Position numbers and translations under genes: made by a program
The notes under the pieces: model-generated
What the model saw: the letters and a program-made list of their open reading frames with translations, nothing else
The model's database searches: none
Told to the model about the DNA's origin: nothing
Part shown: positions 9,676 to 49,387 of the stretch, one piece after another
Position numbering within the stretch: position 1 is the stretch's first letter
Layout of the letters: the number at the start of each line of letters is the position of its first letter
Source: Candidatus Curtissbacteria bacterium
GTDB lineage: Bacteria > Patescibacteriota > Microgenomatia > Curtissbacterales > GWA2-41-24
Direction of reading: 5' to 3'
Assembly (NCBI GenBank): GCA_016183325.1
Contig: JACPEV010000013.1
Span: forward strand, 4,837-68,836
Length of the DNA stretch: 64,000 nucleotides

Positions 9676-10764
9676 ATGAATAAGTCAATTGTTAAAAAGA
9701 GGATATTGACAGGAGACAGACCTACCGGCAGATTACATCTTGGGCATTATGTCGGCTCACTTAGGAATCGGGTGAGATTGCAGGATGAGTATGAGTGCTT
9801 CTTTATTATTGCCGATTTGCACACGCTAACAACACGGCCGGGAAGAACCGAAGAATTAAAAGAAAACATCAAACAATTGGTTTTGGATTATCTGTCGGTT
9901 GGGATAGATCCAAAAAAGGCGACGATCTATGTGCAGTCGCAGATACCAGAAGCTGCAGAGCTGGCAGTGATTTTTGGAAATTTGACGACGGTGCCAAGAC
10001 TTGAGCGGGTACCGACTCTTAAGGATGTGATGAGGGATTCCCATATTCAAATTCCGTCGTTCGGACTTTTGGGATATCCGGTTTTGCAGGCTGCCGATAT
10101 TTTGATGGTAAGAGCTAATTTGGTACCGGTTGGCCGCGATCAGGCCTCGCATATTGAGGTAACGAGAGAAATAGCCAGAGAGTTCAACAAGCTCTATGGA
10201 GTTCACATCGGGAAATCCACTCCCGGTGTGAATGAACTACACACCGGGAGTGTAAGCGGGGGAGATGGGCAAGTTTTTCCGATTCCCGAAGCGTTGATTC
10301 CGGAGGATATAGGTACTTTGCCGGGAACGGATGGAAAAGCTAAGATGAGTAAATCTGTCGGCAATGTGATTAATCTTTCGGACGATTCCGAGACGGTCAA
10401 AAAACAGGTGATGGGGATGTACACGGATCCGAAGAGGGTGCACGGGGATGAACCGGGTAACGTAGAGAATAACCCGGTTTTTATATACTTGGATGCATTT
10501 AGTCAAAGTGAAAAGTCAAAGTCGAAAGTAAAAGAACTGAAAGATAGGTACAAAAACGGTACAGTCAAGGATGTCGAGGTAAAAGAGTTTTTGGTGCAAG
10601 TGTTGGAGGAGTTTTTGCAACCACTGAGGGGGAGACGTGAAGAATATGAGAAACAGCCGGAACTCGTAGAAAAAATCTTGAAAGAGGGAACAGAGAGCGC
10701 GCGGGAAGAGGCAAAAAAGACACTTTCGCTTGTTAGAGCTGCAATGAAAATTGAGTACTTCTAA
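9676..10764 (+). CDS. trpS: tryptophan--tRNA ligase
   Basis: 362 aa. Class I HIGH motif [17 protein letters not shown] and KMSKS motif both present. Carries an in-frame insertion of about 20 aa from a palindromic element at 10217-10252. Confidence 0.9.
   Translation: MNKSIVKKRILTGDRPTGRLHLGHYVGSLRNRVRLQDEYECFFIIADLHTLTTRPGRTEELKENIKQLVLDYLSVGIDPKKATIYVQSQIPEAAELAVIFGNLTTVPRLERVPTLKDVMRDSHIQIPSFGLLGYPVLQAADILMVRANLVPVGRDQASHIEVTREIAREFNKLYGVHIGKSTPGVNELHTGSVSGGDGQVFPIPEALIPEDIGTLPGTDGKAKMSKSVGNVINLSDDSETVKKQVMGMYTDPKRVHGDEPGNVENNPVFIYLDAFSQSEKSKSKVKELKDRYKNGTVKDVEVKEFLVQVLEEFLQPLRGRREEYEKQPELVEKILKEGTESAREEAKKTLSLVRAAMKIEYF
10217..10252 (+). repeat. palindromic element family B, diverged copy, in-frame within trpS
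   Basis: ccactcccggtgtgaatgaactacacaccgggagtg encodes KSTPGVNELHTGSV. The B family has arms cccccggggtg / caccccggggg; this copy has arms ctcccggtgtg / cacaccgggag. Confidence 0.5.
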
Positions 10765-10813: not shown

Positions 10814-12751
10814 ATGGCAAAAGTAGAATCGCAAGAGAACGGAAAATTAGCGGGTAGGTCCCCGATACCGCGCGTGCCTTTGCCTAAAATGAACGGTAAA
10901 TCTTCCTGGAGGGGATTTTTGATTTATATTGTTTTGGGATTTATTCTTTTTATTTTCTTCGCGTTTTCTACCAATCCAGAGCAGCGATTTCAAACGGCTG
11001 AACCACTCTCAAAAGTGATTTCTGACATTCGTGACAATAAAGTCGAACAAGTCGAAGTCGATGGGGAGAGAATTTCAGTCAAATTAAAGGATGGTACGGT
11101 TTATGCTTCCAGAAAAGAGGAAAATCAGAGCATGACCGAAATATTGAAAGATGCTGATGTTGATCCAACTTTGGCCCAGATTAACGTTCGTGATCGGACT
11201 TTTTCGCAGGCGTGGATTACAATATTGACCACTTTTTTACCTTTGGTACTAATGGTTCTTTTCTTCTTTTTTATTTTCAGGCAGGCCAGAGAAGGCGCTT
11301 CTTCGGTTTTTGCTTTTGGCCAGTCAAAAGCTAGGCAATTCAGCCGCGATATGCCAAAGGTTACTTTTGCGGATGTGGCCGGAGTTGATGAAGCTAAGCA
11401 AGAGCTACAAGAGGTGGTTGACTTTTTAAGACATCCTGAAAAATATAGAGCAGTTGGTGCAAGAACTCCCAAAGGAGCACTTTTGATTGGGCCAGCTGGT
11501 ACCGGTAAAACACTTTTAGCAAAGGCTGTTGCCGGAGAAGCGGGAGTGCCTTTTTATTCGGTTGCCGGTAGTGAATTTATGGAAATGTTGGTCGGAGTCG
11601 GGGCTGCCAGGGTTCGCGATCTATTTTCCCAAGCAAAAAGAAGTGCCCCGGCAATTATTTTTATTGATGAGATTGAATCAATCGGCAGAATGAGAGGGAT
11701 GGGCTTTTCGGGAGGTCACGACGAGCGCGAGCAGACTCTAAATCAGATTTTGGTTGAAATGGATGGATTTAATCCAAATGATAACGTTCTGGTGATGGCA
11801 GCGACTAACAGACCTGATTTATTGGATCCCGCCCTGACCCGACCTGGCAGGTTTGATAGAAGAGTCACTTTGGATCTTCCTGATATTGAGGGAAGAAAAG
11901 CGATACTTAAAATTCACAAGAAGGGGAAACCGTTTGCGCCGGATGTTGATGACGAGCGGATTGCCAGAAGAACCGTAGGTTTTTCGGGAGCGGATCTTGC
12001 CAATATGTTAAATGAGGCAGCGATTTTGGCGGCAAGAACGGGTAAAAAAGCTATTGATAACTTGGATATTGAGGAGGCTGCCACAAAAGTTAAACTTGGG
12101 CCACAAAGGAGAAGGATGCAATCTGAGGAAGAAAGAAAGATGACGGCATATCATGAAGGAGGGCATGCGCTGGTTGCTCATTTCCTGCCGAATGTTGACC
12201 CGGTTCATAGAATTTCTATTGTTGCTCGAGGCGTGACAGGAGGGCATACATTAGTGCCGCCTACAGTTGACAGGTATACGGAAACTAAGACAAGGTTGAT
12301 GGAAAGAATTGCCACTTTGCTTGGGGGAAGATCTGCTGAGGAGCTGATTTTTAATGAGTTTACAACCGGTGCAGCTTCTGATCTGGAAATTGCATCAGGT
12401 CTGGCCCGGGATATGGTGACTGAGTTTGGCATGAGCGATCTAGGGCCTACCATATTTTCTCCGAGGCCTCAGTTTGGAATCTGGCCGGTGATGGAAGGGG
12501 GAAGTCAAGTGTCACCGGAGCTGGCTGCCAAAATTGATAAAGAGATTTCTAAGTTAATTGATGCGGGGCATAAAAAGGCAAGAGAGTTGTTGCAAAAACA
12601 TAAGGCGAAACTTGATCTTGTCGCAGAGACTCTTCTTGTGAAGGAGACTTTGGATCGAGATGAGTTTGAGAAGCTGGTCGGTAAGCCAGTTTCTACAAAT
12701 GGGGAGATTAAAATTAAGAGCTCTACTTCTGCCAAATCCGTCCAGGCATGA
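10814..12751 (+). CDS. ftsH: ATP-dependent zinc metalloprotease FtsH
   Basis: 645 aa. N-terminal TM helices, AAA Walker A GPAGTGKT, second region of homology (SRH), and zinc motif HEGGHALVAH. Confidence 0.95.
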   Translation: MAKVESQENGKLAGRSPIPRVPLPKMNGKSSWRGFLIYIVLGFILFIFFAFSTNPEQRFQTAEPLSKVISDIRDNKVEQVEVDGERISVKLKDGTVYASRKEENQSMTEILKDADVDPTLAQINVRDRTFSQAWITILTTFLPLVLMVLFFFFIFRQAREGASSVFAFGQSKARQFSRDMPKVTFADVAGVDEAKQELQEVVDFLRHPEKYRAVGARTPKGALLIGPAGTGKTLLAKAVAGEAGVPFYSVAGSEFMEMLVGVGAARVRDLFSQAKRSAPAIIFIDEIESIGRMRGMGFSGGHDEREQTLNQILVEMDGFNPNDNVLVMAATNRPDLLDPALTRPGRFDRRVTLDLPDIEGRKAILKIHKKGKPFAPDVDDERIARRTVGFSGADLANMLNEAAILAARTGKKAIDNLDIEEAATKVKLGPQRRRMQSEEERKMTAYHEGGHALVAHFLPNVDPVHRISIVARGVTGGHTLVPPTVDRYTETKTRLMERIATLLGGRSAEELIFNEFTTGAASDLEIASGLARDMVTEFGMSDLGPTIFSPRPQFGIWPVMEGGSQVSPELAAKIDKEISKLIDAGHKKARELLQKHKAKLDLVAETLLVKETLDRDEFEKLVGKPVSTNGEIKIKSSTSAKSVQA

Positions 12752-12917: not shown

Positions 12918-14024
12918 ATGACGAAGAAGAAGGATGTATACTCGGAGATTAATAATATGGCTAAAAAGCTGCTTCTAATCGACGGGAATTCACTATTTCA
13001 TCGGGCATATCATGCACTGCCGCCGCTGACGGATAAAAACGGGGAGATGGCCAATGCGGTGTTTGGATTTTCTAATATGTTGCTTAAGGCAATTTCTGAA
13101 GTCAAACCGGATTATATTGCTTGTGCATTTGACACAAAAGCTCCGACTTTTCGCCACATTGAATTTGAGAAATATAAAGCTCAAAGAGTTGCGCCGCCGC
13201 CGGATCTTTATCCGCAACTGCCGAAAGTGAAAAAAGTTTTGGATGCGTTTGGAATTGCTTATTTTGAAAAAGAGGGCTATGAAGCAGATGATTTGTTGGC
13301 AACACTGGCAACTAGAGCCTTGGAATCTGTCATCCTGGAGGGAGTGAAACGACCGATAGGATCTAATGAAAAAAAGAGTAGAGATTCTATCGCTTCGCTC
13401 CAGAATGACAAAAGTGTAGATCAAGTAATTATTCTTTCTGGTGATAGAGACTGTCTGCAATTAGTTGACGGTAGAGTCAAAGTTCAGATGCCGGGATGGA
13501 ATTTGCAGGGGACTACATTATATGGATCGGAGGAGGTTCGGGAAAAATATGGACTCGAACCTCATCAGATGGTGGATTACAAGTCGCTCGTCGGAGATCC
13601 TTCGGATAATGTGCCGGGAGTCAGTGGAATAGGGCCAAAAACTGCAAGTCAACTTTTACAAAAATATCACACCCTGGAAAATCTTTTTAAAAACCTTAAC
13701 AAGATTCCTGAGGCTTTACGTCAAAAACTAGAAGTCGGCCACAAGACAGCCCTTGCTGCTAAGAAGTTGGTGGAACTGGACCGAAACATCGATTTACGAT
13801 TTACGATTAACGATTTACGATTTGAACCGGATTGGGAGAAGGTTCGGCGGGAATACGAACGATTAGGCTTTAAAAGCATAGTCGCGAAGATCCTTGGATC
13901 AGCTAACACCTCCGAGGTGGGTTTACCCCGAGCGGAGTCGAGGGGCTTTGACTCATCGGAGGTGGGTCAAGCCGCGAAGCGAAAACCCAAATCCAATAAC
14001 TCTGATCAGCTTGAGTTAATCTGA
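12918..14024 (+). CDS. 5'-3' exonuclease (Pol I N-terminal domain / FEN family), stand-alone, with a C-terminal extension
   Basis: KKLLLIDGNSLFHRAYHALPPL, then GYEADD, and H3TH GVSGIGPKTA. Probable true start is MAKKLL at 12957. Contains in-frame repeat insertions at 13329-13409, about 13790-13830 and 13906-13966. Confidence 0.8.
   Translation: MTKKKDVYSEINNMAKKLLLIDGNSLFHRAYHALPPLTDKNGEMANAVFGFSNMLLKAISEVKPDYIACAFDTKAPTFRHIEFEKYKAQRVAPPPDLYPQLPKVKKVLDAFGIAYFEKEGYEADDLLATLATRALESVILEGVKRPIGSNEKKSRDSIASLQNDKSVDQVIILSGDRDCLQLVDGRVKVQMPGWNLQGTTLYGSEEVREKYGLEPHQMVDYKSLVGDPSDNVPGVSGIGPKTASQLLQKYHTLENLFKNLNKIPEALRQKLEVGHKTALAAKKLVELDRNIDLRFTINDLRFEPDWEKVRREYERLGFKSIVAKILGSANTSEVGLPRAESRGFDSSEVGQAAKRKPKSNNSDQLELI
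13329..13409 (+). repeat. palindromic element family A, copy A1, in-frame within the exonuclease gene
   Basis: gtcatcctggagggagtgaaacgaccgataggatc...gattctatcgcttcgctccagaatgac, with inverted termini gtcatYctggag. Translated in-frame as SVILEGVKRPIGSNEKKSRDSIASLQNDK. Confidence 0.8.
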
Positions 14025-19476: not shown

Positions 19477-20708
19477 GCTTGATCCCGAGTAAATATCTAA
19501 CGCTTCTCAAAAACAGAAATTTTTTTAATTTAACTTTAATCAATTTATTTTGCCAGTTTTCTTTTGCGGTTTTATCTTTGGTTCTGGTTAGTTCCAGTTT
19601 TGATTTGACTAGGAATAATTTTGGTGTTTCGGCGGTGATTTTGTCCTTTGCCGTGCCGGCAATTGTGACCGTGATTTTTGCTGGCTTAGCCGCGGATATT
19701 TTCGACAGGAAAAGGATCATTACTTACTCAGTAGCTCTGATGGTGTTGGTGACCATTGGTGTGGTGAATGCTCTTTCGAGTATTTTTTGGATGGTGGTTT
19801 TTTCTGCGATTTATCACCTTTTGATTCCGATTTTTTTACCGGCGATTTCCGCGTCATATGTCCAGGTGATACGCAAGAATCAGCTACTTGTCGCAAACTC
19901 AATTTTTACCTTGACTGTTATCGGAGGACAGGGGGGAGGTCTGATGTTGGGGTCAATCATGCAATATTATTGGGGATTTAAATTACCACTTCTAGTTAGT
20001 GCAGCATCCTTAATAATAACTTTATTCATCACAAGACTTTTACCAAGATTGCTTCCTAGAAAATCTTCAAATCTAATGATGGTTCCTGGCGCTGTTAAAG
20101 AAATAATTATTGCGATTTTGTTTGTTTTGCACCGCAAAAGGATTTGGTTTTATTTGTTATTTTTGGGATTCATTTATGGAATTTTCGTATTTGGAGCGAC
20201 GATTGGACCAGGATTTTTTGACGAAATTCTGGGACTTCCCGTAAGAGTTAGCCCGGTCTTTGTTCTTCCTTCAGTTACGTTAGGTCTTTTAACAGGGATG
20301 TATTTTTTGTATCAAAATCCAAGTATTAATGAGGGAACATTAATTGTTTTAGGGAGTTTAGCTGCAAGCCTGGCGACACTTGCAGTAGGGTTAATTATGG
20401 GCAGTGGAATTTTTGAGGAGTTTTGGTTAGTGCTGGCCGTGATTTTCGCTATGGTAGTCAGTTTTGGGGCTGTCATTGTAAGTATTGCCGCAAGAACTGG
20501 TCTGCAAAAACTTGTACCACACAAATATCAAGGAACGGTTTTTGCTATGATGATTATTTTTTCGGCGATTGCAGCAACCATAGCTTCGCCTTCAGCGGCT
20601 TTTTTGACTGTGATTTTAGGGTATATAAATATTTTGATTTTAGTGGGTTTTTTGCTTTTATTAGTTTCTTTAAGTATCGCGTTGCTTTCTTTTAAATGGA
20701 GATTTTAA
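19473..20708 (+). CDS. MFS-type transporter
   Basis: Twelve predicted TM helices with a DRKRI-like loop-2 motif (AGLAADIFDRKRII). Start set at MSLIPSKY, overlapping the mutM stop (ATGA). Confidence 0.6.
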   Translation: MSLIPSKYLTLLKNRNFFNLTLINLFCQFSFAVLSLVLVSSSFDLTRNNFGVSAVILSFAVPAIVTVIFAGLAADIFDRKRIITYSVALMVLVTIGVVNALSSIFWMVVFSAIYHLLIPIFLPAISASYVQVIRKNQLLVANSIFTLTVIGGQGGGLMLGSIMQYYWGFKLPLLVSAASLIITLFITRLLPRLLPRKSSNLMMVPGAVKEIIIAILFVLHRKRIWFYLLFLGFIYGIFVFGATIGPGFFDEILGLPVRVSPVFVLPSVTLGLLTGMYFLYQNPSINEGTLIVLGSLAASLATLAVGLIMGSGIFEEFWLVLAVIFAMVVSFGAVIVSIAARTGLQKLVPHKYQGTVFAMMIIFSAIAATIASPSAAFLTVILGYINILILVGFLLLLVSLSIALLSFKWRF

Positions 20709-21805
20709 GTTTAAATTTAATTAACTTCCGCAACTTTTCTTCTCAAAAGATAGCTTTTGATAAAAATTTAACGGTGGTGATTGGGCCCAATGGGGCTGGC
20801 AAGAGTAATATTTTGGAGGCGTGTGGGCTTTTGGCGACTGTCAGATCGAGCCGAGTCAAGACAGATTTGGACCTGGTCAAATTCGGCAAAAGCGAGGCCA
20901 AAGTAGAGGGCAAAGTTGAGAGTCAAAGTGGAAAGAATGTACTAACCATTAATTTTCAAGTTATCGATGAAACTTATGTGAAGAAATCGTATTTTATTGA
21001 TGAAATAAAAAAGCGATATATTGATTTTAGCGAGCATTTTTCGGTTGTTATTTTTGAACCCTTGGATCTGGATCTGGTTTCCGGTTCACCATCTTTGCGG
21101 CGGCATCATTTAGATATTTTGCTTTCCAGTGGTAATCGAGCGTATTGGCGGAGTTTAAGTTCTTACAATAAGGTAGTAGTCCGCCGCAATAAGGTTCTCT
21201 GGCGAATTGCGGAGGGGAAATCAAAGCCAAGTGAGCTTGATTTTTGGGACGAGCGGTTTTTGGAGCATGGCAAGATAGTTTCCCAAAAAAGGCATGATTT
21301 TTTTGAATTTTTAAATGCTTCGACAGGCTCAGCACAGGTTTTATCAGAATCCGCCAATTCCTCCACCCCCGGGGTGAAAAGAGCCTACACCCCGGGGGTG
21401 TCCCTTGGCGGATTCTCATGGGAACTGAAACAAAGCCTGCTTTCTGAGGAAAAACTTTTAAGAAATCGGGAAAGGGATATTGCGGCGGGGATAACTTTGT
21501 CCGGGCCGCACCGGGATGATTTTAGGTTTTTGTTCAAAAATAAAGACTTGGAGTTTTTCGGAGCACGGGGGGATCAAAGAATGGCGGTTTTGGCGCTGAA
21601 GCTGGCGGAGCTGGAGTATATGGCAACAAAGCGTTTTGCCAGACCGGTTTTGGCACTAGATGATATTTTTTCGGAGCTTGACCATGAGCATCGGGAAGCG
21701 GTTTTGGATGTGATTGGAAAACAGCAAGTGATTATTACGGCGGCCGAACCCGATTCTTTGCCAAAGAAGATTTTTACGAAAGCGAAGGTTGTGGAACTGC
21801 GGTAA
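20696..21805 (+). CDS. recF: DNA replication and repair protein RecF
   Basis: MEILSLNLINFRNF, Walker A GPNGAGKSNILEA, and C-terminal ABC signature and D-loop LDDIFSELD. Carries the family-B palindrome in-frame at 21361-21403. Confidence 0.85.
   Translation: MEILSLNLINFRNFSSQKIAFDKNLTVVIGPNGAGKSNILEACGLLATVRSSRVKTDLDLVKFGKSEAKVEGKVESQSGKNVLTINFQVIDETYVKKSYFIDEIKKRYIDFSEHFSVVIFEPLDLDLVSGSPSLRRHHLDILLSSGNRAYWRSLSSYNKVVVRRNKVLWRIAEGKSKPSELDFWDERFLEHGKIVSQKRHDFFEFLNASTGSAQVLSESANSSTPGVKRAYTPGVSLGGFSWELKQSLLSEEKLLRNRERDIAAGITLSGPHRDDFRFLFKNKDLEFFGARGDQRMAVLALKLAELEYMATKRFARPVLALDDIFSELDHEHREAVLDVIGKQQVIITAAEPDSLPKKIFTKAKVVELR
21361..21403 (+). repeat. palindromic element family B, copy B2, in-frame in recF
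   Basis: ctccacccccggggtgaaaagagcctacaccccgggggtgtcc encodes STPGVKRAYTPGVSL. Near-identical to 62775-62820. Confidence 0.8.
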
Positions 21806-23395: not shown

Positions 23396-25288
23396 ATGAA
23401 ATTTTCGACTTTGGCGCAATACTACGAAAAGCTTGAGGCGACTTCCAAAAGGTTAGAACTTGTGGACATTTTATCCAAGCTCTTTAAGGAAGCAAAAGCG
23501 GAGGAGATTGGGAAAATTTGTTATTTGATTCAGGGAAGAGTGGCGCCGTTTTTTGAAGCGACAGAGATTGGAATGGCAGAATCGATGGTGGCATCTGCGA
23601 TAGCCAAAGCTTTTGGTGAGGACAAAGATAAAGTTACCAAATCATATCGCAGTTTAGGAAACATGGGTTTGGCTGCACAAAAGCTATCGCAAGGTTCCCA
23701 CCAGAAGGGCGGGCAGGCGCCGTTCAAAGTTCACCCTTCGACTCCTTCGGCTTCGCTCAGGACAAGTTCGCTCAGGGCAAGCAGTTCAAAGTTGTCTGTT
23801 AGTGAGGTTTTTGATGAACTTTTAAAGATTGCAAAGTTTACAGGAAAGGGGACTGTTGAGCAAAAGGTTTCAACACTCTCTGAACTTTTGAAAAAGCTTG
23901 ATCCTGTTTCGGTTAAGCACGTTGCCAATATTCCGCTTGGGACTCTGAGGCTTGGGATTGGGGATCCGACTGTGCTTGATGCGTTGTCATTGGCGAAAAA
24001 AGGCGATAAGTCACTACGTCCAGTCTTGGAGGATGCTTATAACAAGACGAGTGATTTGGGATATGTGGCAGAGACATATTTTAAACTGCAAGAAGGCGGG
24101 CTTAAAAATATCAAACTTGTGGTCGGTAAACCAATACGACCGGCACTGGCAGAAAGATTGCCTTCAGCAGAAGAGGCGGTCAAAAGACTTGGCGGTGAAT
24201 TTGCGGCAGAGCCGAAATTTGACGGCTTTAGGGTGCAGGTGCATTTGTCCCCTTCCATCAAGTCTGAGGTAATTAGGGGTTCAACCCTTAAAGATCTAGC
24301 TCGGGCGACTTCGGGGGTTGAACCCCGATTGGAACACGTCAAATTATTTTCCAGGAATCTTGAAAATACGACGCATGCTTTCCCGGATATTGTAGAAGGA
24401 GTGAAGCGCGAAGTTGGTGCAAAGTCGGCAATACTTGAGGGTGAAGCGATTGCTTATAACCCCACTACCTCCGAATTCTTGCCGTTTCAGGAAACAACCA
24501 AAAGACGTCGTAAATATCAGGTTGAGGAAATGGTCAAAAAACTGCCTTTGGTTTTATTTGTCTTTGATCTTTTGTATTTAAACGGGAAGGATATAACAGA
24601 AAAACCTTATCGCGAGAGGAGAAAACTTTTAACAGGGATTGTGCCAAAGGAAGGTAAGGTTGTGAGACTGGCTGAGGAAAGAACACTAAAGGGAGCAGGT
24701 GAGATCACAAAGTTTTTCAACGAAGCTGTTTCCGAAGGACTTGAGGGTTTGATGCTCAAAAAATTGGACAGTCCATACGTTGCCGGGGGTAGGGGTTTTC
24801 ATTGGATCAAGTTTAAGAGAAGCCAGGCAGGAGAGCTGACGGATACGGTCGATTGTGTGATTTTGGGAGTATTTAGCGGTAAAGGGAAGCGGACTGAGTT
24901 TGGCGTCGGTGGGCTTTTAGTGGGGGTATATGAGAAGAAACGTGATGAATTTGTGACAATCTCCAGAATCGGGACAGGGCTGACGGATGAGGAGTTTCGG
25001 CAAGTTAATGAGCTTGCCAAAAAGTTGAAAGTTTCACACAAGCCCTCCAGAGTTAATTCTAAAATCGAACCGACTTTTTGGGTCGAACCAAAAGAAGTTT
25101 TGGAAATTTATGCGGATGAAATAACGCGTTCACCGATTCATACGGCCGGAGCCGATAAAGACGGCATAGGTTATGCGTTGCGATTCCCAAGACTGGTAAA
25201 GTTTAGAGGGAAGGACAAACGCGCTGAGGATGCGACAACTGTTGAGGAAGTTGAGAAGATGTATAAGCAACAGTATAAGAAGAAATAG
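23396..25288 (+). CDS. ATP-dependent DNA ligase
   Basis: Motif I AEPKFDGFRVQVH (KxDG). The N-terminal DNA-binding domain and OB-fold regions are typical of archaeal/eukaryote-type ATP ligases. A low-complexity Ser-rich insert (PSTPSASLRTSSLRASSSKLS) is present. Confidence 0.8.
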   Translation: MKFSTLAQYYEKLEATSKRLELVDILSKLFKEAKAEEIGKICYLIQGRVAPFFEATEIGMAESMVASAIAKAFGEDKDKVTKSYRSLGNMGLAAQKLSQGSHQKGGQAPFKVHPSTPSASLRTSSLRASSSKLSVSEVFDELLKIAKFTGKGTVEQKVSTLSELLKKLDPVSVKHVANIPLGTLRLGIGDPTVLDALSLAKKGDKSLRPVLEDAYNKTSDLGYVAETYFKLQEGGLKNIKLVVGKPIRPALAERLPSAEEAVKRLGGEFAAEPKFDGFRVQVHLSPSIKSEVIRGSTLKDLARATSGVEPRLEHVKLFSRNLENTTHAFPDIVEGVKREVGAKSAILEGEAIAYNPTTSEFLPFQETTKRRRKYQVEEMVKKLPLVLFVFDLLYLNGKDITEKPYRERRKLLTGIVPKEGKVVRLAEERTLKGAGEITKFFNEAVSEGLEGLMLKKLDSPYVAGGRGFHWIKFKRSQAGELTDTVDCVILGVFSGKGKRTEFGVGGLLVGVYEKKRDEFVTISRIGTGLTDEEFRQVNELAKKLKVSHKPSRVNSKIEPTFWVEPKEVLEIYADEITRSPIHTAGADKDGIGYALRFPRLVKFRGKDKRAEDATTVEEVEKMYKQQYKKK

Positions 25289-29694: not shown

Positions 29695-30399
29695 TTGTCA
29701 ATTGTTATAACTATGCCTTCGGCTGCTGAACTGATAAATTTTGCGGAACAACTAATTATTCGCTGGGGAATTTGGTTAATACCGATCGGGGCATTTTTGG
29801 AAAATTCGATAATTTTGGGATTTATTTTTCCTGGAGTGACTGTGATTTTTTTGTCGGGATTTGTAGCCAGAACAAGCGGCGAAAATCTATTTTTAATAAT
29901 TTTACTGGCGACTTTAGGGTCATTTTTGGGTGACAATTTTGATTATTTAATCGGTAAGCGAGCAGGCAAGGTTCTAGAGGAAAAGCCACTTTTTGCCAAA
30001 CCAGTATCTTTAGTAGAGCCTTTTTTGCTAAAACACGGGATCTGGGCAGTTTTCGCCGGCCGTTTTTCTGCTTGGAGCCGAGCTTGGATAGCGCTGGCCT
30101 GCGGGATTATTCGGTTTAAGTACTGGAAATTTGCGCTAGTTTCGGCAGCGTCGGCGCTGATTTGGACTTCTGCCTGGATTATCGGTGGCTATTTAATGGC
30201 TGGTAATCGCAAGCTGATTGAGGAGTGGTTTGACCGAGCATCGGATTTAGTTATCCTGGGCCTTTTGGTCCTTATTATTTACTATTTCAGGACAAGATTG
30301 AAGCTGATTTTTGATTTGGTAGTTTATTTTATCCACAAAACAGGAAAGCGGGTAGTCGGAAAGGTGACAGGTAATGACCAGGACCGAGGGCAAGTTTAG
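29695..30399 (+). CDS. DedA-family membrane protein
   Basis: LIGKRAGKVLEEKP...GIWAVFAGRF is a DedA/SNARE-associated signature, with multiple TM helices. Confidence 0.65.
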   Translation: MSIVITMPSAAELINFAEQLIIRWGIWLIPIGAFLENSIILGFIFPGVTVIFLSGFVARTSGENLFLIILLATLGSFLGDNFDYLIGKRAGKVLEEKPLFAKPVSLVEPFLLKHGIWAVFAGRFSAWSRAWIALACGIIRFKYWKFALVSAASALIWTSAWIIGGYLMAGNRKLIEEWFDRASDLVILGLLVLIIYYFRTRLKLIFDLVVYFIHKTGKRVVGKVTGNDQDRGQV

Positions 30400-30850
30400 C
30401 GATCTGGTATATCAATTAGTCAGTCAGATCCCAAAAGGCAAAGTAGCAACGTATGGTGAGATAGTGGCAGAATTGCGCCAACAGGAACACCTCCGAGGTG
30501 TAGGCTCTTTCCACCTCGGAGGTGGAGGAGCTAGAGCGGTAGGCAATGCATTGCATCGCAATCGGGATCCGAAAGTTCCATGTCATAGAGTAGTGGATCG
30601 CAATGGACGGTTGGCGACGCATTTTGCGTTCGATGGGGCTGGTGAACAAAAAAGACGTTTAGTTGCGGAAGGCGTTAAATTCAAAGATAATATGCATGTA
30701 GATTTGGGGGAATGTTTATGGGACGAGAGAGAAACAGATATCTTCATCACAGACCTATTCATTCTCGAGAGAGGTCACATAATCGTAAATATACAATTGA
30801 ATTTTTGGCTGGGGCAATTTATTCCCTTAAAGAGTCTGACAATCCAATAA
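30374..30850 (+). CDS. methylated-DNA-protein-cysteine methyltransferase DNA-binding-domain protein (MGMT/ATL-like)
   Basis: Active-site context VPCHRVV (PCHR). An in-frame palindrome insert (family C) encodes GVGSFHLGGG. The C-terminal end is uncertain. Confidence 0.55.
   Translation: MTRTEGKFSDLVYQLVSQIPKGKVATYGEIVAELRQQEHLRGVGSFHLGGGGARAVGNALHRNRDPKVPCHRVVDRNGRLATHFAFDGAGEQKRRLVAEGVKFKDNMHVDLGECLWDERETDIFITDLFILERGHIIVNIQLNFWLGQFIPLKSLTIQ
30488..30525 (+). repeat. palindromic element family C (cacctccgaggtg...cacctcggaggtgg), in-frame in the MGMT-like gene
   Basis: Perfect 14-nt inverted arms. A related copy lies at 13906-13966. Confidence 0.7.
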
Positions 30851-39673: not shown

Positions 39674-40774
39674 ATGGATTTCCAGACACATCTAAAAGAT
39701 TTCTTGGCCAGTTTTGAGCCATATGCCCAAAAATATTTTCAGAACAAAATCAAAGAAGTTTCCAAATATCATCCTTTAATCGTCCAGTTTTACAAAGACC
39801 TTGCCGATTTTTCCTCCGGAGGGAAAAGAATGAGGGCGTTTTTAGTTTATCTTGGATATTTGATAGGAACTCATCTGCGGTTCAACCCCTCTGATGGGTT
39901 GAACCTCCAAAAGGATTTTCAAAAAATTTTGCCGATTGCCTTGGCGATTGAGATCATTCACAGTTTCCTTTTAATTCACGATGACATTATCGATAAATCA
40001 GACATGCGGCATGGAGCGCCGACTATCCATAGGCGCTATGAGAAGCTAGTTGGTAGCCCGCCTGCCGTCCGCCTGAGGGACGAGGCGGGTCATTACGGAT
40101 TAAGTCAAGCCATCCTGCTTGGTGATATTGCTTGTTTTGAGGCGTTTAGTTTAATTAATTCGTCGTCTTTTGATAATGATCTTAAGGTAATTTGCCAAGG
40201 ACAACTTATTAAAACTCTTTTGAATACCGGATACGGAGAAGCTCTGGACGTTGAGGCACCTTACAGAGGGGCGACGTTAGCGCAGATTAGACAGGTAATG
40301 GACCTCAAGACGGCAAGATATAGTTTTGTGGGACCGCTGAGCTTGGGAGCAATTTTGGGAGGGGCAGGGAAAGAACAGATTAGCAGTTTGACTAAGTTTG
40401 GACTCTCTTGTGGGATGGCGTTTCAACTCAAAGATGATATCCTCGGAGTTTTTGGTGATGAGAAGGTTACAGGGAAGCCAATGGATTTCTCGGAAGGGAA
40501 AAATACAATGCTTATTTATAAAACTTATGAGCTTGTAAATGCAAAAGAAAAAGCATATTTAAAGAAAATTTGGGGGAACAAAAACGCAAATTCTGGAGAT
40601 TTAAAGCGAGTTGGGCAAATAATTAGGGATTGTGGAGCTTTGGCATGGTGTGAGAAGGAACAAGTGAAACTGGCGAATGCGGCAAAAAAGGTTATTTTTG
40701 ATATAACAAATGATAAAGAATTACAAATTATCTTTGAGCAAATTGCAGATTTCGTAATAGGCAGAGAAAAGTAA
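39674..40774 (+). CDS. polyprenyl diphosphate synthase (trans-isoprenyl diphosphate synthase, FPP/GGPP-type)
   Basis: First Asp-rich motif LIHDDIIDKSDMRHG and second motif FQLKDDILGVFGDE. Confidence 0.85.
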   Translation: MDFQTHLKDFLASFEPYAQKYFQNKIKEVSKYHPLIVQFYKDLADFSSGGKRMRAFLVYLGYLIGTHLRFNPSDGLNLQKDFQKILPIALAIEIIHSFLLIHDDIIDKSDMRHGAPTIHRRYEKLVGSPPAVRLRDEAGHYGLSQAILLGDIACFEAFSLINSSSFDNDLKVICQGQLIKTLLNTGYGEALDVEAPYRGATLAQIRQVMDLKTARYSFVGPLSLGAILGGAGKEQISSLTKFGLSCGMAFQLKDDILGVFGDEKVTGKPMDFSEGKNTMLIYKTYELVNAKEKAYLKKIWGNKNANSGDLKRVGQIIRDCGALAWCEKEQVKLANAAKKVIFDITNDKELQIIFEQIADFVIGREK

Positions 40775-42208: not shown

Positions 42209-42820
42209 ATGAAGGACTTTACGCTTAAACATTATGCATCAAGAACTCACGAAAAAATGCGGGAGGTTCTGATGGATCCTAATGCAGTAGGGCCGGAGAT
42301 TCATTATCACATGGTGCGGGGAGGGACTGACCAGCGAAATATTACGACTTGGGAGCCGGGAACTGTTGGTGGGGAGTATATAAAAACATATGGGCATTAT
42401 CATGTTGGCAAGTTGGATGAGACGTATTGGGTGATATTTGGAGAAGGGGTGGTTTTGGTACAAAAGAGAGCCGTAGGAGTTGATGGAAGCCCAATCGACG
42501 ATGAAATAGAGCAAGCTTATGCTGTTCATGTTCGTCCGGGTGATGCATTGTTTATCCCTGCCGAGTGGGGACATTTGGTGGCTAATATCTCCAAGACGTT
42601 CTTTGTGACAGCTGATGACTCTCCGGTAAATTTTGATGAATCTAATCCTGTCTCTTTGCCGGGGCATGCGGATTATGAAGCTGTGAAGCGAATGCAAGGG
42701 TTTTGTTATTACATTGTAGAGAAAGGCGGAAAGCCTGCCTTGGTTAAGAATCCCAAGTACAAAAAGGTGCCTGAACTTGAAATTATCGAAGCTAAGGATT
42801 ACCCTTTGTCAAAGGACTAG
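42209..42820 (+). CDS. cupin-type glucose-6-phosphate isomerase (archaeal-type cPGI)-like
   Basis: TVGGEYIKTYGHYH...GEGVVLVQ...HVRPGDALFIPAEWGH resembles the cPGI motifs TxGxEYxKTxGHYH and xPxxxxH. Confidence 0.45.
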   Translation: MKDFTLKHYASRTHEKMREVLMDPNAVGPEIHYHMVRGGTDQRNITTWEPGTVGGEYIKTYGHYHVGKLDETYWVIFGEGVVLVQKRAVGVDGSPIDDEIEQAYAVHVRPGDALFIPAEWGHLVANISKTFFVTADDSPVNFDESNPVSLPGHADYEAVKRMQGFCYYIVEKGGKPALVKNPKYKKVPELEIIEAKDYPLSKD

Positions 42821-43238
42821 ACCAATTTCCTATATTAGGCTTACGAGCTTCCAATAAATCATGAAACAAAGTTCTCCTAAATTCAGTCTCAGCTTTTGGC
42901 ATGGGCTTGGGCCAATGATGAATTCTATAGGCCAAAGCAAGAGCAATTTCAGCTTGCCTTTTTTTTGCAAGCAAATATTTGAGCAGAGGTTTAAGAACAG
43001 GTATGACGTGAGTTCCAGTTACGCGCCACTTAGTTACAGGCAAATTTCTACCTCTTATCAACTCTGGCCAATAACTACCTCCGAATGTTTTCTGGAGAAG
43101 TTGCATTGGCTCTATATCCGTCATTCCTACTTCTACCATCGGTTTAAATTGATCTTTGCCATATTGAAAAGTTTTTCTTATAGAAATACAACCTTCGCCG
43201 TCAATAAGACCTGCGAGATAAGCATAAACAGTTTTCAT
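42792..43238 (-). CDS. free-standing LAGLIDADG-family homing endonuclease-like protein
   Basis: N-terminal YLAGLIDGEGCISI, a single LAGLIDADG motif of the homodimer type. Confidence 0.7.
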   Translation of the reverse strand: MKTVYAYLAGLIDGEGCISIRKTFQYGKDQFKPMVEVGMTDIEPMQLLQKTFGGSYWPELIRGRNLPVTKWRVTGTHVIPVLKPLLKYLLAKKRQAEIALALAYRIHHWPKPMPKAETEFRRTLFHDLLEARKPNIGNWSSPLTKGNP

Positions 43239-43336: not shown

Positions 43337-45151
43337 ATTTGCGGGATTTTTGGTTACGTTGGTAAACAGCGTGACGCTGCAAAGATTGTTTTTGAGGGTC
43401 TTAAGCGGCTTGAATACCGCGGTTATGATTCGTGGGGAATAGTTGCGGTGAGTGGAAAGTTGAAAGTTGAGAGTGGAAAATTATTAGTAGAAAAGCATGT
43501 GGGGAAAATCGGCAATTCAACTCTCAATTCTCAACTCTCAATTCTCAAATCAAGTATAGCTCTTGGCCACACGCGCTGGGCGACGCACGGGGGAGTGACT
43601 AAGGAGAATGCCCATCCACATTTAGATTGCAGCGGAAATTTGGCTTTGGTTCATAACGGCATTGTCGAAAATTATCAAGAGCTTAAAAAAAGCCTCAAAA
43701 AAAAGCATAAATTTAAATCTCAGACGGATTCGGAAGTGATAGTACACATGATCGAGGAATTGAGAGGCTTAATCTCTTCTAAGGTTGAACCTTCAACAAA
43801 GGTTCAACCTTTAAAAGATACTGTCAGGAAAGTGTTTTTGAAACTCACAGGACTTAACGCTATTGTAGTGATGAATGATGGAGAACTGGTTGTTGCTAAG
43901 AACGGATCTCCTTTAGTTTTGGGGATAGGCAGTGGTGAGTATTTAGTAGCTTCTGATGCGGCGGCGCTTTTGCCTCACACAAATAAAGTTATTTTCCTGC
44001 GAGACAACCAGATGGCAGAAATAACGGATAGTGGAGTAAATATTTTTGATATAGCCTCAGATGAGGCAGTAACACCAAAAGTAGAAATACTAAATTGGAA
44101 AATTGAAGAAGCAAATCTTGGAGGCCATAAACACTTCATGATCAAAGAAATTTACGAGCAGCCAAAGGTTATCAGGAACATATCAGAAACTTATATAGAC
44201 CAAATAAGTGATCTTTGTAAGGTAATCGAGAAAGCTCATGGCACATTTTTTATTGGGGCTGGAACCGCATTTAATGCTTGTCTTGCCGGGGCGTATCTTT
44301 TTTCAAAGATTGCAAAAGCGCATGTAAATACGATTGTCGCTTCCGAATTTAATTATCTGGAGCATTTTTTACATAAAGAAACTTTGGTGATTGCTCTTTC
44401 ACAATCCGGGGAAACAATCGACGTTATTGAGCCCTTGAAAAGGGCAAAAGAAAAAGGTGCCAAGATTGTGGCGATTGTAAATAATTTGGGCTCGACGATT
44501 TGGCAAATGGCAGATTATAAATTGTTACTTGGTGCCGGAGTTGAGATGGCGGTTGCTTCAACAAAAGCTTATGTTTCTAAACTTTCTGTTTTAATCTTGA
44601 TTGCATATGGACTCGTGAATAGACTGGACGAGGGAAGAAAATTGCTTGCAGAGGCTGCTGATGAGGTTGAAAGACTATTGTTCGAGGAAGTGGAAAACAT
44701 AAAAAAAATCGCAAAAATTTTAGCAGTCCACGATCATATTTTTACCATTGGTCGAGGACTTTCGTATCAAACGGCCCTTGAGGCTGCTTTGAAGATGAAA
44801 GAGGTTAGTTATATTCATACGGAAGGATTGGCTGGAGGAGAGCTGAAGCACGGGCCGATTGCATTAATTTCAAAAGGGACGCCGTGCGTTGTTTTTGCAC
44901 CAAACGATGAGACACATGAGGCAATTATTTCTAACGCCACCGAGATTAAAGCAAGAGGCGGGTTGATTATCGGGGTTGGGTCAAAAAAGTCAGAAGTGTT
45001 TGACGAATGGGTCCAAGTGCGAGATTTAGGGGACGCTTCTATAATTTGCAATGTTATTCCAGCACAGCTATTTGGTTATTTTTTGGCGATTGAGAAAGGT
45101 TTGGACCCGGATAAGCCAAGAAATTTAGCAAAGTCAGTCACTGTGAAATAA
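43337..45151 (+). CDS. glmS: glutamine--fructose-6-phosphate aminotransferase, apparently initiating at ATT
   Basis: Frame reads (I)CGIFGYVGKQRDAAKIVFEGLKRLEYRGYDSWGIV, with the Ntn Cys directly after the initiator, plus two SIS domains and C-terminal ...KSVTVK. AAGGAGG sits 5 nt upstream of ATT 43337. The nearest in-frame ATG (43448) would delete the catalytic Cys. Two in-frame simple-repeat inserts at 43450-43550. Confidence 0.8.
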   Translation: MCGIFGYVGKQRDAAKIVFEGLKRLEYRGYDSWGIVAVSGKLKVESGKLLVEKHVGKIGNSTLNSQLSILKSSIALGHTRWATHGGVTKENAHPHLDCSGNLALVHNGIVENYQELKKSLKKKHKFKSQTDSEVIVHMIEELRGLISSKVEPSTKVQPLKDTVRKVFLKLTGLNAIVVMNDGELVVAKNGSPLVLGIGSGEYLVASDAAALLPHTNKVIFLRDNQMAEITDSGVNIFDIASDEAVTPKVEILNWKIEEANLGGHKHFMIKEIYEQPKVIRNISETYIDQISDLCKVIEKAHGTFFIGAGTAFNACLAGAYLFSKIAKAHVNTIVASEFNYLEHFLHKETLVIALSQSGETIDVIEPLKRAKEKGAKIVAIVNNLGSTIWQMADYKLLLGAGVEMAVASTKAYVSKLSVLILIAYGLVNRLDEGRKLLAEAADEVERLLFEEVENIKKIAKILAVHDHIFTIGRGLSYQTALEAALKMKEVSYIHTEGLAGGELKHGPIALISKGTPCVVFAPNDETHEAIISNATEIKARGGLIIGVGSKKSEVFDEWVQVRDLGDASIICNVIPAQLFGYFLAIEKGLDPDKPRNLAKSVTVK

Positions 45152-45464: not shown

Positions 45465-46058
45465 ATGAAACTTGGAGCTAAACAATTAAGAGTGAGTGAA
45501 CCAAGCGAAGCTGATCTTAAAAAGATCAAACGGCGGGAGGTTTATATTATTTGTGACAATGTTTTGGATACTTATAATATCGGATCGATATTTCGCTTGG
45601 CGGATGCTCTGGCAGTTAAGTGCGTTTATCTGTGTGGTGGATCGGAAACTCCTCCAAATGCTCGGATTGCTAAGGCCAGTGTGGGGACTGATAAGTGGGT
45701 ACCATGGCAATATAGAGCAACAGCGGTCGAGGCGATTTTGGATCTCCGGTCCCGTCATTCTGGAGGGAGTGAAACGACCGATAGAATCTCAAGAGATCCT
45801 ATCGCTTCGCTCCAGGATGACAGGATAGGAATCAAGGTAGTTGCAATAGAGCAGAGCAAAAATAGTCAAGACTTTAGGAAAGTGGAGTATACAGAGCCCG
45901 TGGCTTTTGTGGTTGGGCATGAAACAGGAGGGGTATCAAAAGAAGCTTTGAAGATGGCGGATCAAATCGTGGAGATACCGATGTTTGGTATAAACCGATC
46001 ACTTAACGTTATGGTTTCTCTGGCTATTGTTTTGTATCAAGCCGTAGTAATGGATTAA
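45465..46058 (+). CDS. SpoU/TrmH-family RNA 2'-O-methyltransferase (SPOUT)
   Basis: VVGHETGGVSKEALKMADQIVEIPMFGINRSLNVMVSLAIVLYQ are SPOUT motifs 2-3. An in-frame family-A palindrome lies at 45754-45821. Confidence 0.7.
   Translation: MKLGAKQLRVSEPSEADLKKIKRREVYIICDNVLDTYNIGSIFRLADALAVKCVYLCGGSETPPNARIAKASVGTDKWVPWQYRATAVEAILDLRSRHSGGSETTDRISRDPIASLQDDRIGIKVVAIEQSKNSQDFRKVEYTEPVAFVVGHETGGVSKEALKMADQIVEIPMFGINRSLNVMVSLAIVLYQAVVMD
45754..45821 (+). repeat. palindromic element family A, copy A3, in-frame within the SpoU methyltransferase gene
   Basis: gtcattctggagggagtgaaacgaccgatagaatc tcaagagatc ctatcgcttcgctccaggatgac, translated as RHSGGSETTDRISRDPIASLQDDR. The reading frame differs from copy A1. 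Confidence 0.8.
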
Positions 46059-47321: not shown

Positions 47322-47721
47322 TTGTCAAGCGGTGTAGAATTAGTCGCGCGATATGCGAATACTGTTTGGTAATTTTTCTTCATTCTTACAAGTTCGCAAT
47401 TCATAGCTCTTTAACAACTGAAAAGTATGCCGCTTTTCAGTATTCTTTTGTTTGATCTTGATCCGCCTACGCTCTTCGAGCTTCGGCGGACTGCGAGTTC
47501 AAGCAAGCTTGAACTCTGAAAAGTGGCACCCAAAAAACCGGAAATCGGAATTCGGAAATCGGATTTCGGACTTTTTCTGAGATCTGATATCTGATATCTG
47601 AAATCCGGGAATAATCCTTAGAGTTATTTAAAATCGAGTTCAGATTAAATTCTTTTTTGAGAGTTTGATCCTAGCTCAGGATGAACGCTGGCGGCGTGCC
47701 TTAGGCATGCAAGTCGAACGG

Positions 47722-48155
47722 CCGGAGATCAGATTTCGGAAATCGGATTTCGGATATAATTAGAGAAGTGATGGATGTAACGGAATTGAGAGTGTATAGG
47801 CAATCATTAGATGCATTTCTATTAATTGAAGAGATTGCAAAACAATTGCCAAAAGAGTTAGCTGATACAAGAAGACAAATATTAAGATGCTCAAAAGCTG
47901 TTGCACCCATTATTGCAGAGGGTTTTGGACGTAGACATTCACAAAGAGAATTTGGACATTACGTAATTCAAGCTATGAGTTCTTCAGATGAGACAATAAC
48001 CCATTTGAGAACAATTGCTATTTCCAAATTTAATACTGTTTCAATCGATCAGTTGAAACATGCGGCGAGTGTCTATAAATCTCTTTCCAAACAACTCAAC
48101 AAACTTTTCACTTCTTTAATAGTCTGAAATCTGACTTCTGATATCCGATCTCCGG
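47722..48155 (+). other. intervening sequence in the 16S helix-6 region, bounded by inverted repeats and encoding a protein
   Basis: ccggagatcagatttcggaaatcggatttcgga (5' boundary) and tccgaaatc...atccgatctccgg (3' boundary) are inverted repeats around ORF 47768-48127. The mature 16S resumes with cagtggcggaagggtgagtaatg. Confidence 0.65.
47768..48127 (+). CDS. four-helix-bundle protein of the family known as rRNA intervening-sequence (S23-like) proteins
   Basis: LRVYRQSLDAFLLIEEIAKQLPKELADTRRQILRCSKAVAPIIAEGFGRRHSQREFGHYVIQAMSSSDETITHL matches the family pattern, including AEG[FY]GRR. Confidence 0.7.
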   Translation: MMDVTELRVYRQSLDAFLLIEEIAKQLPKELADTRRQILRCSKAVAPIIAEGFGRRHSQREFGHYVIQAMSSSDETITHLRTIAISKFNTVSIDQLKHAASVYKSLSKQLNKLFTSLIV

Positions 48156-48929
48156 CAGTGGCGGAAGGGTGAGTAATGCATAGGAACGTACCTTTTGGTG
48201 GGGAATAACCCGGCGAAAGCCGGGCTAATACCTCGTAATCCCGCAAGGGTATAGGGCTTAACCGCCCGCCGAAAGAGTGGCCTATGTCCTATCAGCTTGT
48301 TGGTGGGGTAATGGCCTACCAAGGCAACGACGGGTAGCTGGGCTGAGAGGTCGGCCAGCCACAAGGGAACTGAGACACGGTCCCTACACCTACGGGTGGC
48401 AGCAACCGGGAATTTTGGACAATGGGCGAAAGCCTGATCCAGCGACGCCGCGTGGAGGAAGAAGGCCTTAGGGTTGTAAACTCCTTTTGGCCCGCATAAT
48501 GCGGGCAGAATAAGCACCTGCTAACTACGTGCCAGCAGCCGCGGTGATACGTAGGGTGCAAGCGTTATCCGGATTTACTGGGCGTAAAGGGTTGCGTAGG
48601 CGGCTTGTTAAGTCAAAACTGAAATACTCTCGCTCAACGAGGGGGACGGTTTTGATACTAGCAGGCTTTGAGTCTTTCAGAGGTAGCTGGAACTTGCAGT
48701 GGAGCGGTGAAATGCGTTGATATTGCAAGGAACACCGAAGGCGTAGGCAAGCTACTGGGAAAGATCCCTGTACCATTCGGTACGGGACGGGCTGCATCGT
48801 AAGATGCGCCTAGTCTGACGCTGATGCACGAAAGCTAGGGGAGCGAAAGGGATTAGAGACCCCTGTAGTCCTAGCCGTAAATGATGGATACTAGATGTCC
48901 GGCTCGCAAAGTCGTATGACTTTGCGAGA

Positions 48930-49022: not shown

Positions 49023-49084
49023 CAAAATCGTAGATTTTGCGAGCTGGATGTCGCAAGCTAACGCGTTAAGTGTCCCGCCTGGGA

Positions 49085-49152
<68 letters not shown>

Positions 49153-49356: not shown

Positions 49357-49387
<31 letters not shown>

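Follow-up and report, generated by a model that had tools for sequence, protein, structure and literature searches.

Family B is a family of short palindromes that lie inside genes along a 64,000-nt stretch of Candidatus Curtissbacteria DNA (contig JACPEV010000013.1; the whole stretch is called the window below). We conclude that it is probably a short, non-autonomous element of the REP/REPIN class (repetitive extragenic palindromes and hairpin-forming doublets of them) in Microgenomates of the Candidate Phyla Radiation (CPR), mobilised in trans by a REP-associated tyrosine transposase (RAYT) and tolerant of in-frame insertion within genes. Mobilisation by a RAYT is suggested by the architecture of gene flanks in related genomes, where inverted family-B hairpins stand on both sides of RAYT-like genes. 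A sequence-only reading of the window had noticed the palindromes in recF, a folC-like gene and trpS and likened them to Rickettsia palindromic elements (RPEs). That likeness holds insofar as copies are in frame, free of stop codons, sporadic among orthologues and modelled as disordered loops, but a REP/REPIN-like identity fits better, since hairpins flank RAYT-like genes.

Hairpins in the window

According to a scan for hairpins and to a covariance model, the window carries five perfect hairpins with 13-bp stems and one degenerate copy. Scanning the window with the covariance model and its filters off recovered these five plus one and nothing further. Three copies had been named before, so half were overlooked (30488–30524, 62040–62074 and 13907–13968). 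Where 0.37 and 0.00 occurrences are expected, the motif occurs 13 times in the window and the gapped pattern three times. For the five perfect hairpins, folding energies in single-stranded DNA run from −15 to −28 kcal/mol, with z scores of −4.1 to −8.4. The copies comprise four different stem variants at a density of about one per 11 kb, and within this genome the loops are more alike than the stems. All six sit inside open reading frames (ORFs), in frame locally and free of stop codons; the stem itself holds no stop codon in any frame. Peptides predicted from the family include SSTPGVK, HLRGVGSF, AYTPGVSLGGFSWELK and HLRGVGSFHLGGGGAR.

Type 1 hairpins have an 11-nt loop and are found in recF, in the C-terminal ORF of the folC-like gene and, in reverse orientation, in a gene for an MGMT/ATL-like DNA-binding protein. 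The recF copy (21364–21400, plus strand; CACCCCCGGGGTG, loop AAAAGAGCCTA, CACCCCGGGGGTG; covariance-model score 59 bits) is translated as TPGVKRAYTPGV. Its counterpart in the Mur_ligase_C segment of the folC-like gene (62782–62818, plus strand; stems CACCCCCGGGGTG and CACCCCGGGGGTG, loop AAAGGAGCCTA; 59.6 bits) is translated as TPGVKGAYTPGV, immediately ahead of the conserved LILVTGSLYLVGEVR strand. The two had been described as near-identical palindromes, and they are indeed perfect hairpins that differ by a single loop base. The length of 45 bp given for them describes the extent of their similarity, which reaches about 45 nt (left flank YYCCTC, right flank TC; about 21358–21402 in recF), but the strict, perfect palindromic core is 37 nt. 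The peptide reported as STPGVK(R/G)AYTPGVSL is read in both genes as STPGVK(R/G)AYTPGVS. The copy in the MGMT/ATL-like gene (30488–30524, minus strand; stem CACCTCCGAGGTG, minus-strand loop GAAAGAGCCTA; 55.8 bits) departs from the type 1 stem by compensated C>T and G>A changes. Translated as HLRGVGSFHLGG, it lengthens the protein by about 13 aa at a point flanked by the TYGEI and RAVG helices.

Type 2 hairpins have the 9-nt loop AATGAACTA and are found in trpS and in the middle ORF of the folC-like gene. The trpS hairpin (10218–10252, plus strand; CACTCCCGGTGTG, loop AATGAACTA, CACACCGGGAGTG) lies within an insert block of 22 codons (10201–10266) between ...KLYG and GQVFPIPEALIP. It had been taken for a diverged relative of the recF and folC palindromes, and its anatomy agrees: the 13-bp stem follows the plan CA...CCSGG...TG of type 1, and the loop likewise ends in CTA. 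The copy in the Mur_ligase_M segment of the folC-like gene (62040–62074, plus strand; CAAACCCGGTTTG, loop AATGAACTA, CAAACCGGGTTTG; 44.9 bits) is translated as KPGLNELQTGF. Its loop is identical to that of the trpS copy, and their stems differ at three positions, all compensated. The sixth copy is degenerate or composite and occupies the C-terminal tail of a PolI 5'–3' exonuclease (13907–13968, plus strand). Its arm CACCTCCGAGGTG and decayed arm CTCATCGGAGGTG stand 36 nt apart, with another small palindrome in the spacer; it is read as TSEV...SSEV, scores 12.6 bits for the arm only and folds weakly (z −1.4).

Several of the host genes are housekeeping genes. recF (20696–21805, plus strand) encodes 369 aa identical throughout (100%) to a Candidatus Curtissbacteria RecF at NCBI (P0001), and trpS (9676–10764, plus strand) encodes 362 aa, likewise 100% identical to an NCBI Candidatus Curtissbacteria protein; both NCBI proteins come from a 75.5-kb contig. 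The MGMT/ATL-like gene spans 30374–30850 and the PolI exonuclease gene 12918–14024. The folC-like Mur-ligase gene (61284–62953, plus strand) is divided among three frames (61284–61760, 61711–62196 and 62186–62953) by two frameshifts, at 61730–61786 and 62186–62196; a perfect 28-nt tandem duplication covering 61730–61786 accounts for the first. The earlier description of in-frame insertion is therefore accurate for recF and trpS, but applies to the folC-like gene only inside each ORF segment. Its broken state could reflect a pseudogene, variation within the population or a faulty assembly.

Family B in other genomes and beside RAYT-like genes

Family B is widespread in Microgenomates and its stems are strictly complementary. 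We scanned species-representative genomes with the pattern CACCYCCGRGGTG-N7-13-CACCYCGGRGGTG, leaving four Y/R positions free, and found at least 109 loci. Among the loci listed, most belong to Microgenomates or other Patescibacteria: Curtissbacteria, Levybacteria, Beckwithbacteria, Woesebacteria, Daviesbacteria, Shapirobacteria, Gottesmanbacteria, WWE3 and unclassified Patescibacteria. Two metagenome-assembled genomes (MAGs), CAZWLF and JAHJSD, hold at least 20 loci each. Despite the free Y/R positions, 112 of 113 copies among the matches listed are fully complementary, and they fall into three stem types. The arms are usually palindromic themselves, on the plan X-C-X'. Aligning 19 copies, all those of the window among them, gives pairing in 99.6% of cells. 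Double changes affect 6 of the 13 pairs and a one-sided (G·U-type) change affects none; the covariation score was reached by none of 500 shuffles. With no G·U-type intermediates, the pattern speaks for a palindrome maintained by Watson–Crick pairing at the DNA level rather than for a constraint on RNA structure.

Copies within genes are read through as part of the protein. About half of the copies among the matches listed sit in long ORFs. Where an ORF of at least 150 nt extends on both sides, 46 copies keep the frame and 15 shift it (P=2e-11 against an expectation of 1/3). The combination of orientation and frame that gives TGA at the arm–loop junction is depleted among coding copies, and copies with the A-rich loop on the coding strand outnumber those in the reverse orientation 35:13. 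The in-frame excess and the depletion of the stop-creating frame together argue that the elements are translated rather than spliced out.

Elsewhere family B forms non-coding mosaics. In two MAGs many copies lie in mosaic repeats of 130–220 nt that resemble bacterial interspersed mosaic elements (BIMEs). At one locus of a high-copy MAG (L024, 1–520), the mosaic units join several arms of family B to further palindromic modules, like enterobacterial BIME clusters. Many 'binchicken' third-party-annotation MAGs among these loci (within L004–L109, for example L013, L021 and L024) are labelled as uncultured Gammaproteobacteria or Pseudomonadales and carry hairpins and genes of CPR type; the flank of L013 is the same as that of Curtissbacteria locus L001. 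The taxonomic labels of such MAGs are probably wrong.

RAYT-like genes occur among these loci, in some cases bracketed by family-B hairpins. The first RAYT queries served only as bait, and their matches were confirmed by Pfam, NCBIfam and CPR-derived queries. ORFs with a Y1_Tnp domain (PF01797) are present in 8 of the 109 listed loci, a sample selected throughout for hairpins and lacking a proper control. They match Pfam with E values of 1e-6 to 1e-10, display an HUH-like motif (NHxHFLLK) and have the REP-associated tyrosine transposase model REP_Tyr_transpos (NF047646) as their best NCBIfam match. In a WWE3 locus (L060), family-B hairpins at 347–382 and 1024–1059 immediately flank a RAYT-like gene (398–1036) in inverted orientation. 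In a Shapirobacteria locus (L085), hairpins at 704–741 and 1467–1505 stand on both sides of a RAYT-like gene at 782–1447. The L085 hairpins have the type 1 stem of the window, and their loops contain TAGGCT, the start of the window's type 1 loop on the opposite strand.

The L085 transposase belongs to a lineage of Microgenomates proteins with similar surroundings. It has at least 250 homologues of about 220–226 aa, and every named one is from Microgenomates. We retrieved four Microgenomates homologues with their flanks (L114–L117), and each is bounded by inverted repeats. In L115 and L117 these repeats are 13-mer palindromes built on the family-B plan, such as CAAACCTGGTTTG and CACACC[A/G]GGTGTG, one base away from the type 2 arms of the window; L114 and L116 are flanked by related palindromes. 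When the flanks of L117 were extended to 10 kb (L118), a further copy of the cognate palindrome appeared within a gene, at a distance of 8.5 kb from the transposase. Read on the opposite strand, all five loops of the window's perfect hairpins begin with TAG after the final G of the arm, so that a GTAG straddles the arm–loop junction.

These observations are consistent with transposition in trans through a hairpin. The element, two 13-nt arms that are often each near-palindromic around a loop of 9–13 nt, would take hairpin form when its DNA is single-stranded. An HUH/Y1 tyrosine transposase of the RAYT type would recognise this hairpin and move or copy it in trans, leaving no target-site duplication (TSD). 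Recognition of the loop by sequence and of the stem by structure would fit loops that are more alike than stems. Insertion might occur anywhere, and the copies that survive in gene-dense genomes would be intergenic ones and permissive genic ones, the latter where the net length keeps the frame, no stop falls in frame and the site is a permissive surface loop. A surviving genic copy would be transcribed and translated as a disordered loop of 12–23 aa (TPGVK..YTPGV, TSEVK..HTSEV or HLRG..HLGG), presumably neutral or nearly so for the host protein. The source genome would itself possess such a RAYT.

The flanks of family B lack the marks of a DDE transposon. Around 55 copies with 11-nt loops, direct repeats of 2–4 nt at offsets of up to 9 nt are no commoner than in shuffled flanks, and the flanks show neither a consensus nor pairing beyond the 13-bp stem. 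Absence of a TSD and of a flank consensus is expected of the IS200/IS605–RAYT class rather than of DDE-type miniature transposable elements with inverted repeats (MITEs), and we rejected a classical DDE-derived MITE on these grounds. The family-B pattern has no match in IMG/VR and thus shows no sign of phage carriage.

Several results weigh against a RAYT-mobilised element. No RAYT gene was found in the 64-kb window; Pfam searches of 20 further window ORFs returned a XerC/D-like integrase, a LAGLIDADG ORF, pilins and toxin–antitoxin genes, and no Y1 transposase. The RAYT matches score 45–49 bits, below the NCBIfam curated cut-off of 80, and hairpins that match the pattern lie directly at the gene ends in just two of the eight RAYT-containing loci. 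Neither a GTAG nor a CGTC tag is present outside the stem in the flanks of the window copies; GTAG just outside the stem is the canonical REP tag. Many relatives have other loops. The exact type 1 loop has no match in other genome contigs or in Joint Genome Institute (JGI) metagenomes, and the exact type 2 loop has none in JGI metagenomes. Two further difficulties, the conservation of orthologous copies and the reuse of their sites, come from the host proteins.

Insertion sites in host proteins and rival explanations

Family-B peptides occupy positions that are empty in solved homologues and modelled as disordered in the host. According to alignments with PDB entries, the insert sites of the window copies have no residues in solved homologues. 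An addition of about 20 residues to TrpS had been proposed, and residues 176–197, a 22-aa insert, have no counterpart in the TrpRS structures 6ncr and 1yi8. The MGMT-like protein is about 13 residues longer than Atl1 at the hairpin site, and the 20-aa block in the PolI exonuclease tail is missing from the syntenic L112 orthologue. Mapping onto AlphaFold models, which had been suggested as a check, places both main inserts in low-confidence loops. The TrpS model has an overall predicted local distance difference test score (pLDDT) of 84, with residues 179–196 below 50 as a coil between well-modelled elements. The RecF model has an overall pLDDT of 89, with residues 213–235 below 50 as its sole poor segment. 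In these models the inserts are disordered loops between secondary-structure elements.

Orthologue comparison shows inserts that are sporadic and recur at the same sites. For TrpS and RecF we compared 120 Curtissbacteria-level orthologues each, counting an insert as at least 5 aa. An insert lies at exactly the hairpin site in 60 of the 120 TrpS orthologues and in about 66 of the 120 RecF orthologues, and the rest have none. The proposed orthologue alignment thus found the sites empty in about half of the proteins, and homologues from unrelated lineages, where the same segment would have spoken against insertion, are empty at the site as well. Filled sites contain family B with various stems and reading frames (TPGV..TPGV, TSEVK..HTSEV and HLRG..HLGG). 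They also hold the GGTTCAACC family (GSTP..GVEP), an LPAGRQ block or a long RGPVSS...ELRAVGNPS block. Mapped on a 120-tip neighbour-joining tree, the insert class changes 43 times against 54 times with shuffled labels, so the inserts either turn over very quickly or are mapped on a poorly resolved tree.

That several unrelated families of palindromes use a single site in each protein is the first of the two difficulties, as the specificity of a transposase fails to explain it. Selection for permissive loops, or targeting of hairpins already present, could account for such shared hot spots. The second is that copies shared by orthologues are far better conserved than their host genes. The RecF orthologue L110 has the same element with 35 of 37 nt identical, in a gene that is 69% identical overall (P=2e-4), and the peptide STPGVK(R/G)AYTPGVS is conserved in the RecF orthologue P0002. 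In the closest TrpS orthologue, L112, 33 of 35 nt are identical in a gene that is 74% identical (P=2e-3); at the same site the TrpS orthologue L113 is empty. The matching position in the orthologue of the MGMT-like protein at L013/L001 (60% identical) also holds a family-B hairpin, whose loop differs and has the opposite orientation. Two differences in 37 and in 35 nt are not what a decaying selfish insert predicts; they require that purifying selection act on the element, that active copies keep converting it or that it have a function in the host.

A host function is the basis of one rival, in which the hairpins are host-selected signals (uptake-signal-like, a DNA site linked to repair or recombination, or an mRNA structure) that purifying selection keeps perfect and that are placed preferentially in genome-maintenance genes. 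The excess conservation of orthologous copies over the surrounding gene is what such a signal would produce, and three of the six window copies lie in recF, MGMT/ATL and PolI-exonuclease genes, an enrichment that is anecdotal here although REPs of other phyla have been reported as enriched in replication and repair genes (PMC3733652). The 35:13 bias of loop orientation relative to the gene might also reflect a signal, but A-rich loops that encode hydrophilic residues account for it as well. Signal sites should not be empty in about half of close orthologues or filled by unrelated families in others, and four stem variants in one window leave no single recognition word. Known uptake sequences are one conserved word, often in inverted pairs and enriched in genome-maintenance genes; they occur about once per kb, compared with about one family-B copy per 11 kb, and the total lack of G·U-type pairs argues against a constraint on RNA structure. 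We therefore regard host-selected signals as unlikely. Narrower functional readings were dropped: a DNA uptake sequence for its density and its four stems, a restriction-site or uptake-signal role because stems vary within the genome, and an RNase III or terminator function for a stem of just 13 bp with no T-run. A cyanobacterial HIP1/SDR context, hinted at by CGATCG motifs, was dropped because the organism belongs to Curtissbacteria.

A second rival, local origin, needs no transposition: template switching or hairpin-primed repair would create palindromes at fragile permissive sites, and gene conversion would make the copies alike. Strictly perfect stems, the absent TSD and the repeated striking of the same sites all suit this process. 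So do two features of the inserts themselves. The recF hairpin is nested in a 12-bp outer stem (21346–21357 paired with 21405–21416), an inverted duplication of the flank in which conserved coding sequence of the host (LGGF) forms the right arm and the left arm belongs to a 24-nt block missing from L110. The trpS insert carries a 12-nt gain that resembles an extra arm. These additions suggest secondary growth of palindromes by template switching. As the source of family B, however, the process leaves unexplained the identical or near-identical loops of 9–11 nt in unrelated genes (recF, folC and MGMT; trpS and folC) and the presence of the same stem family in many genera and on both sides of a transposase gene. 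Local origin is accordingly improbable, and template switching is more likely a secondary process that alters elements already inserted.

The two remaining rivals concern what is expressed. The hairpins might be intervening sequences removed from the transcript and never translated, akin to the insertions in CPR rRNA; they would make very stable RNA stems, and the window's 16S rRNA gene, 1988 nt long against a 1533-position model, points to RNA-level insertions in this organism. The in-frame, stop-free excess (46:15, P=2e-11) and the depleted stop-creating frame speak against removal, there is no known splicing signal, and Rfam searches of the window at gathering thresholds returned only the 16S rRNA and four tRNAs, with no match for the hairpins, which makes this reading very unlikely. 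That the repeated peptide TPGV...TPGV is a selected protein module is hardly credible: STPGVK(R/G)AYTPGVS is the same in RecF and the FolC-like protein bar the R/G residue and is kept in P0002, but the same DNA element yields unrelated peptides in other frames or orientation (TSEV.., HLRG..HLGG, PPGC..), occurs in non-coding DNA as well and is modelled as disordered where translated.

Relation to known palindromes and other repeats

A RAYT-mobilised REP/REPIN-class element shares most of its traits with described systems. REPs in inverted orientation around a RAYT gene are the hallmark of REP/REPIN–RAYT systems, or 'REPtrons' (PMC5581495, PMC3116915, PMC3733652). Family B is likewise a short G+C-rich palindrome in many copies, in which two inverted units pair into a hairpin (13-nt arms, a perfect 13-bp stem, arms kept complementary). 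Copies stand inverted on both sides of a Y1/HUH transposase gene (L060, L085) with no TSD. It also forms BIME-like non-coding mosaics (L024), and some copies are genic, with replication and repair genes prominent among them. Nunvar 2010 is reportedly among the works on REP elements and RAYT transposases.

Family B differs from those systems in host, size and location. Its hosts are CPR Microgenomates, a lineage outside the surveys of REP/REPIN–RAYT systems (PMC3116915, PMC5581495, PMC3733652). REPINs measure about 70–110 nt and have imperfect stems, whereas the family-B doublet is 35–39 nt in all and its stems are perfect. Unlike REPs it has no GTAG outside the stem, and the associated transposases fall under the NCBIfam RAYT cut-off. 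REPs are by name extragenic, yet about half of the family-B copies and all six in the window are intragenic; in Pseudomonas fluorescens SBW25, 14 of 1,067 16-mers overlap genes (Bertels & Rainey 2011, PMC3116915). Intragenic REPs that code for 20–30 aa, often in replication and repair genes, have nonetheless been described (Di Nocera 2013, PMC3733652).

The likeness to RPEs is in habit rather than in structure. RPEs too are in-frame palindromes in unrelated housekeeping genes, translated, compatible with the fold and sporadic among orthologues (Ogata et al. 2000, via PMC10969869 and PMC3733652). They belong to Alphaproteobacteria and measure about 100–150 bp in the case of RPE-1, whereas family B measures 35–37 nt, lives in CPR bacteria and is linked to RAYT-like genes. 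RPE-4 and RPE-6 have been equated with CGTC-tagged REPs, for which no dedicated transposase is known (PMC3733652); family B has no CGTC tag at its ends and is set apart from the RPE families by description. Coding palindromes are also known from organelles, in Nematomorpha mitochondria (PMC6649704), as hairpin elements in sponges (PMC2800124) and in Volvox (PMC2670323). They resemble family B as perfect or near-perfect inverted repeats translated within genes and as dispersed hairpin-forming repeats, but they are eukaryotic, often longer (up to 284 bp), without a transposase and unrelated in sequence. In literature on palindromes, MITEs or RAYTs of CPR, Patescibacteria or Microgenomates we found no relevant paper. 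The kind of element is thus already known, since intragenic REPs and the equation of RPEs with REPs precede family B (PMC3733652). What is new with family B is its lineage, how small and perfect the unit is, the large share of copies inside genes and the recurrent hot spots in essential genes.

The window contains palindromic repeats besides family B. A second hairpin family with GGTTCAACC/GGTTGAACC stems occurs at 24276–24326, 39879–39905, 43781–43811 and 58411–58440; it is probably the 'family A' of the sequence-only reading. The GGTTCAACC family shares the hot spots in TrpS and RecF orthologues, where it is read as GSTP...GVEP. Further palindromic blocks at 13341–13401, 45757–45818, 47462–47490 and 50449–50505, of the forms GGAGTGAAACGACCGATAG.ATCT...TCGCTTCGCTCC and TCC[G/A]CCTACGCT..., bring the total to at least four palindrome families in the window. 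Two of these blocks lie within genes, the one at 13341–13401 in the PolI exonuclease and that at 45757–45818 in a SpoU methylase, whose Pfam match is split into two stretches.

Tandem repeats and other insertions are also present. A 48-nt unit, each containing the palindrome GGTTTTGACGAAGTCAAAACC, is repeated 5.1 times (98% matches) at 51929–52174, just downstream of a tRNA gene (51845–51916). Short tandem arrays at 13790, 15832, 46555 and 61634 have four or five copies of 7–8-nt units, lengths that are not multiples of three, and some lie inside ORFs. The 16S rRNA gene (47653–49640) carries about 450 nt of insertion; insertions in 16S rRNA are common in CPR. A free-standing ORF of 147 aa (42792–43235, minus strand) has a weak LAGLIDADG_1 match (E 2.4e-5). 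The FtsH gene of the close relative L112 (6332–9529, 1065 aa) contains a LAGLIDADG-domain intein, which the syntenic FtsH of the window (10814–12751, 645 aa) does not.

Tiny, gene-dense CPR genomes thus host several palindrome families that insert repeatedly in essential genes, trpS and recF among them. At the TrpS and RecF sites, inserts account for much of the variation in length. This affects protein annotation, alignment and phylogenomics in CPR, for example through Pfam domains that seem to be split. The hairpins beside RAYT-like genes also provide a concrete enzymatic hypothesis for in-frame palindromic insertion, a question still open for the RPEs of Rickettsia. A bolder version, which we hold to be a long shot, is that a vertically inherited partnership of RAYT and REPIN in CPR keeps the hairpins perfect and re-seeds them in a few permissive loops of proteins essential to genome maintenance and translation, where they would serve the host as a DNA signal or, in these ultra-small genomes, as a standing generator of surface-loop diversity. 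If true, this partnership would be the first transposase-linked model for the origin of RPE-type in-frame palindromes.

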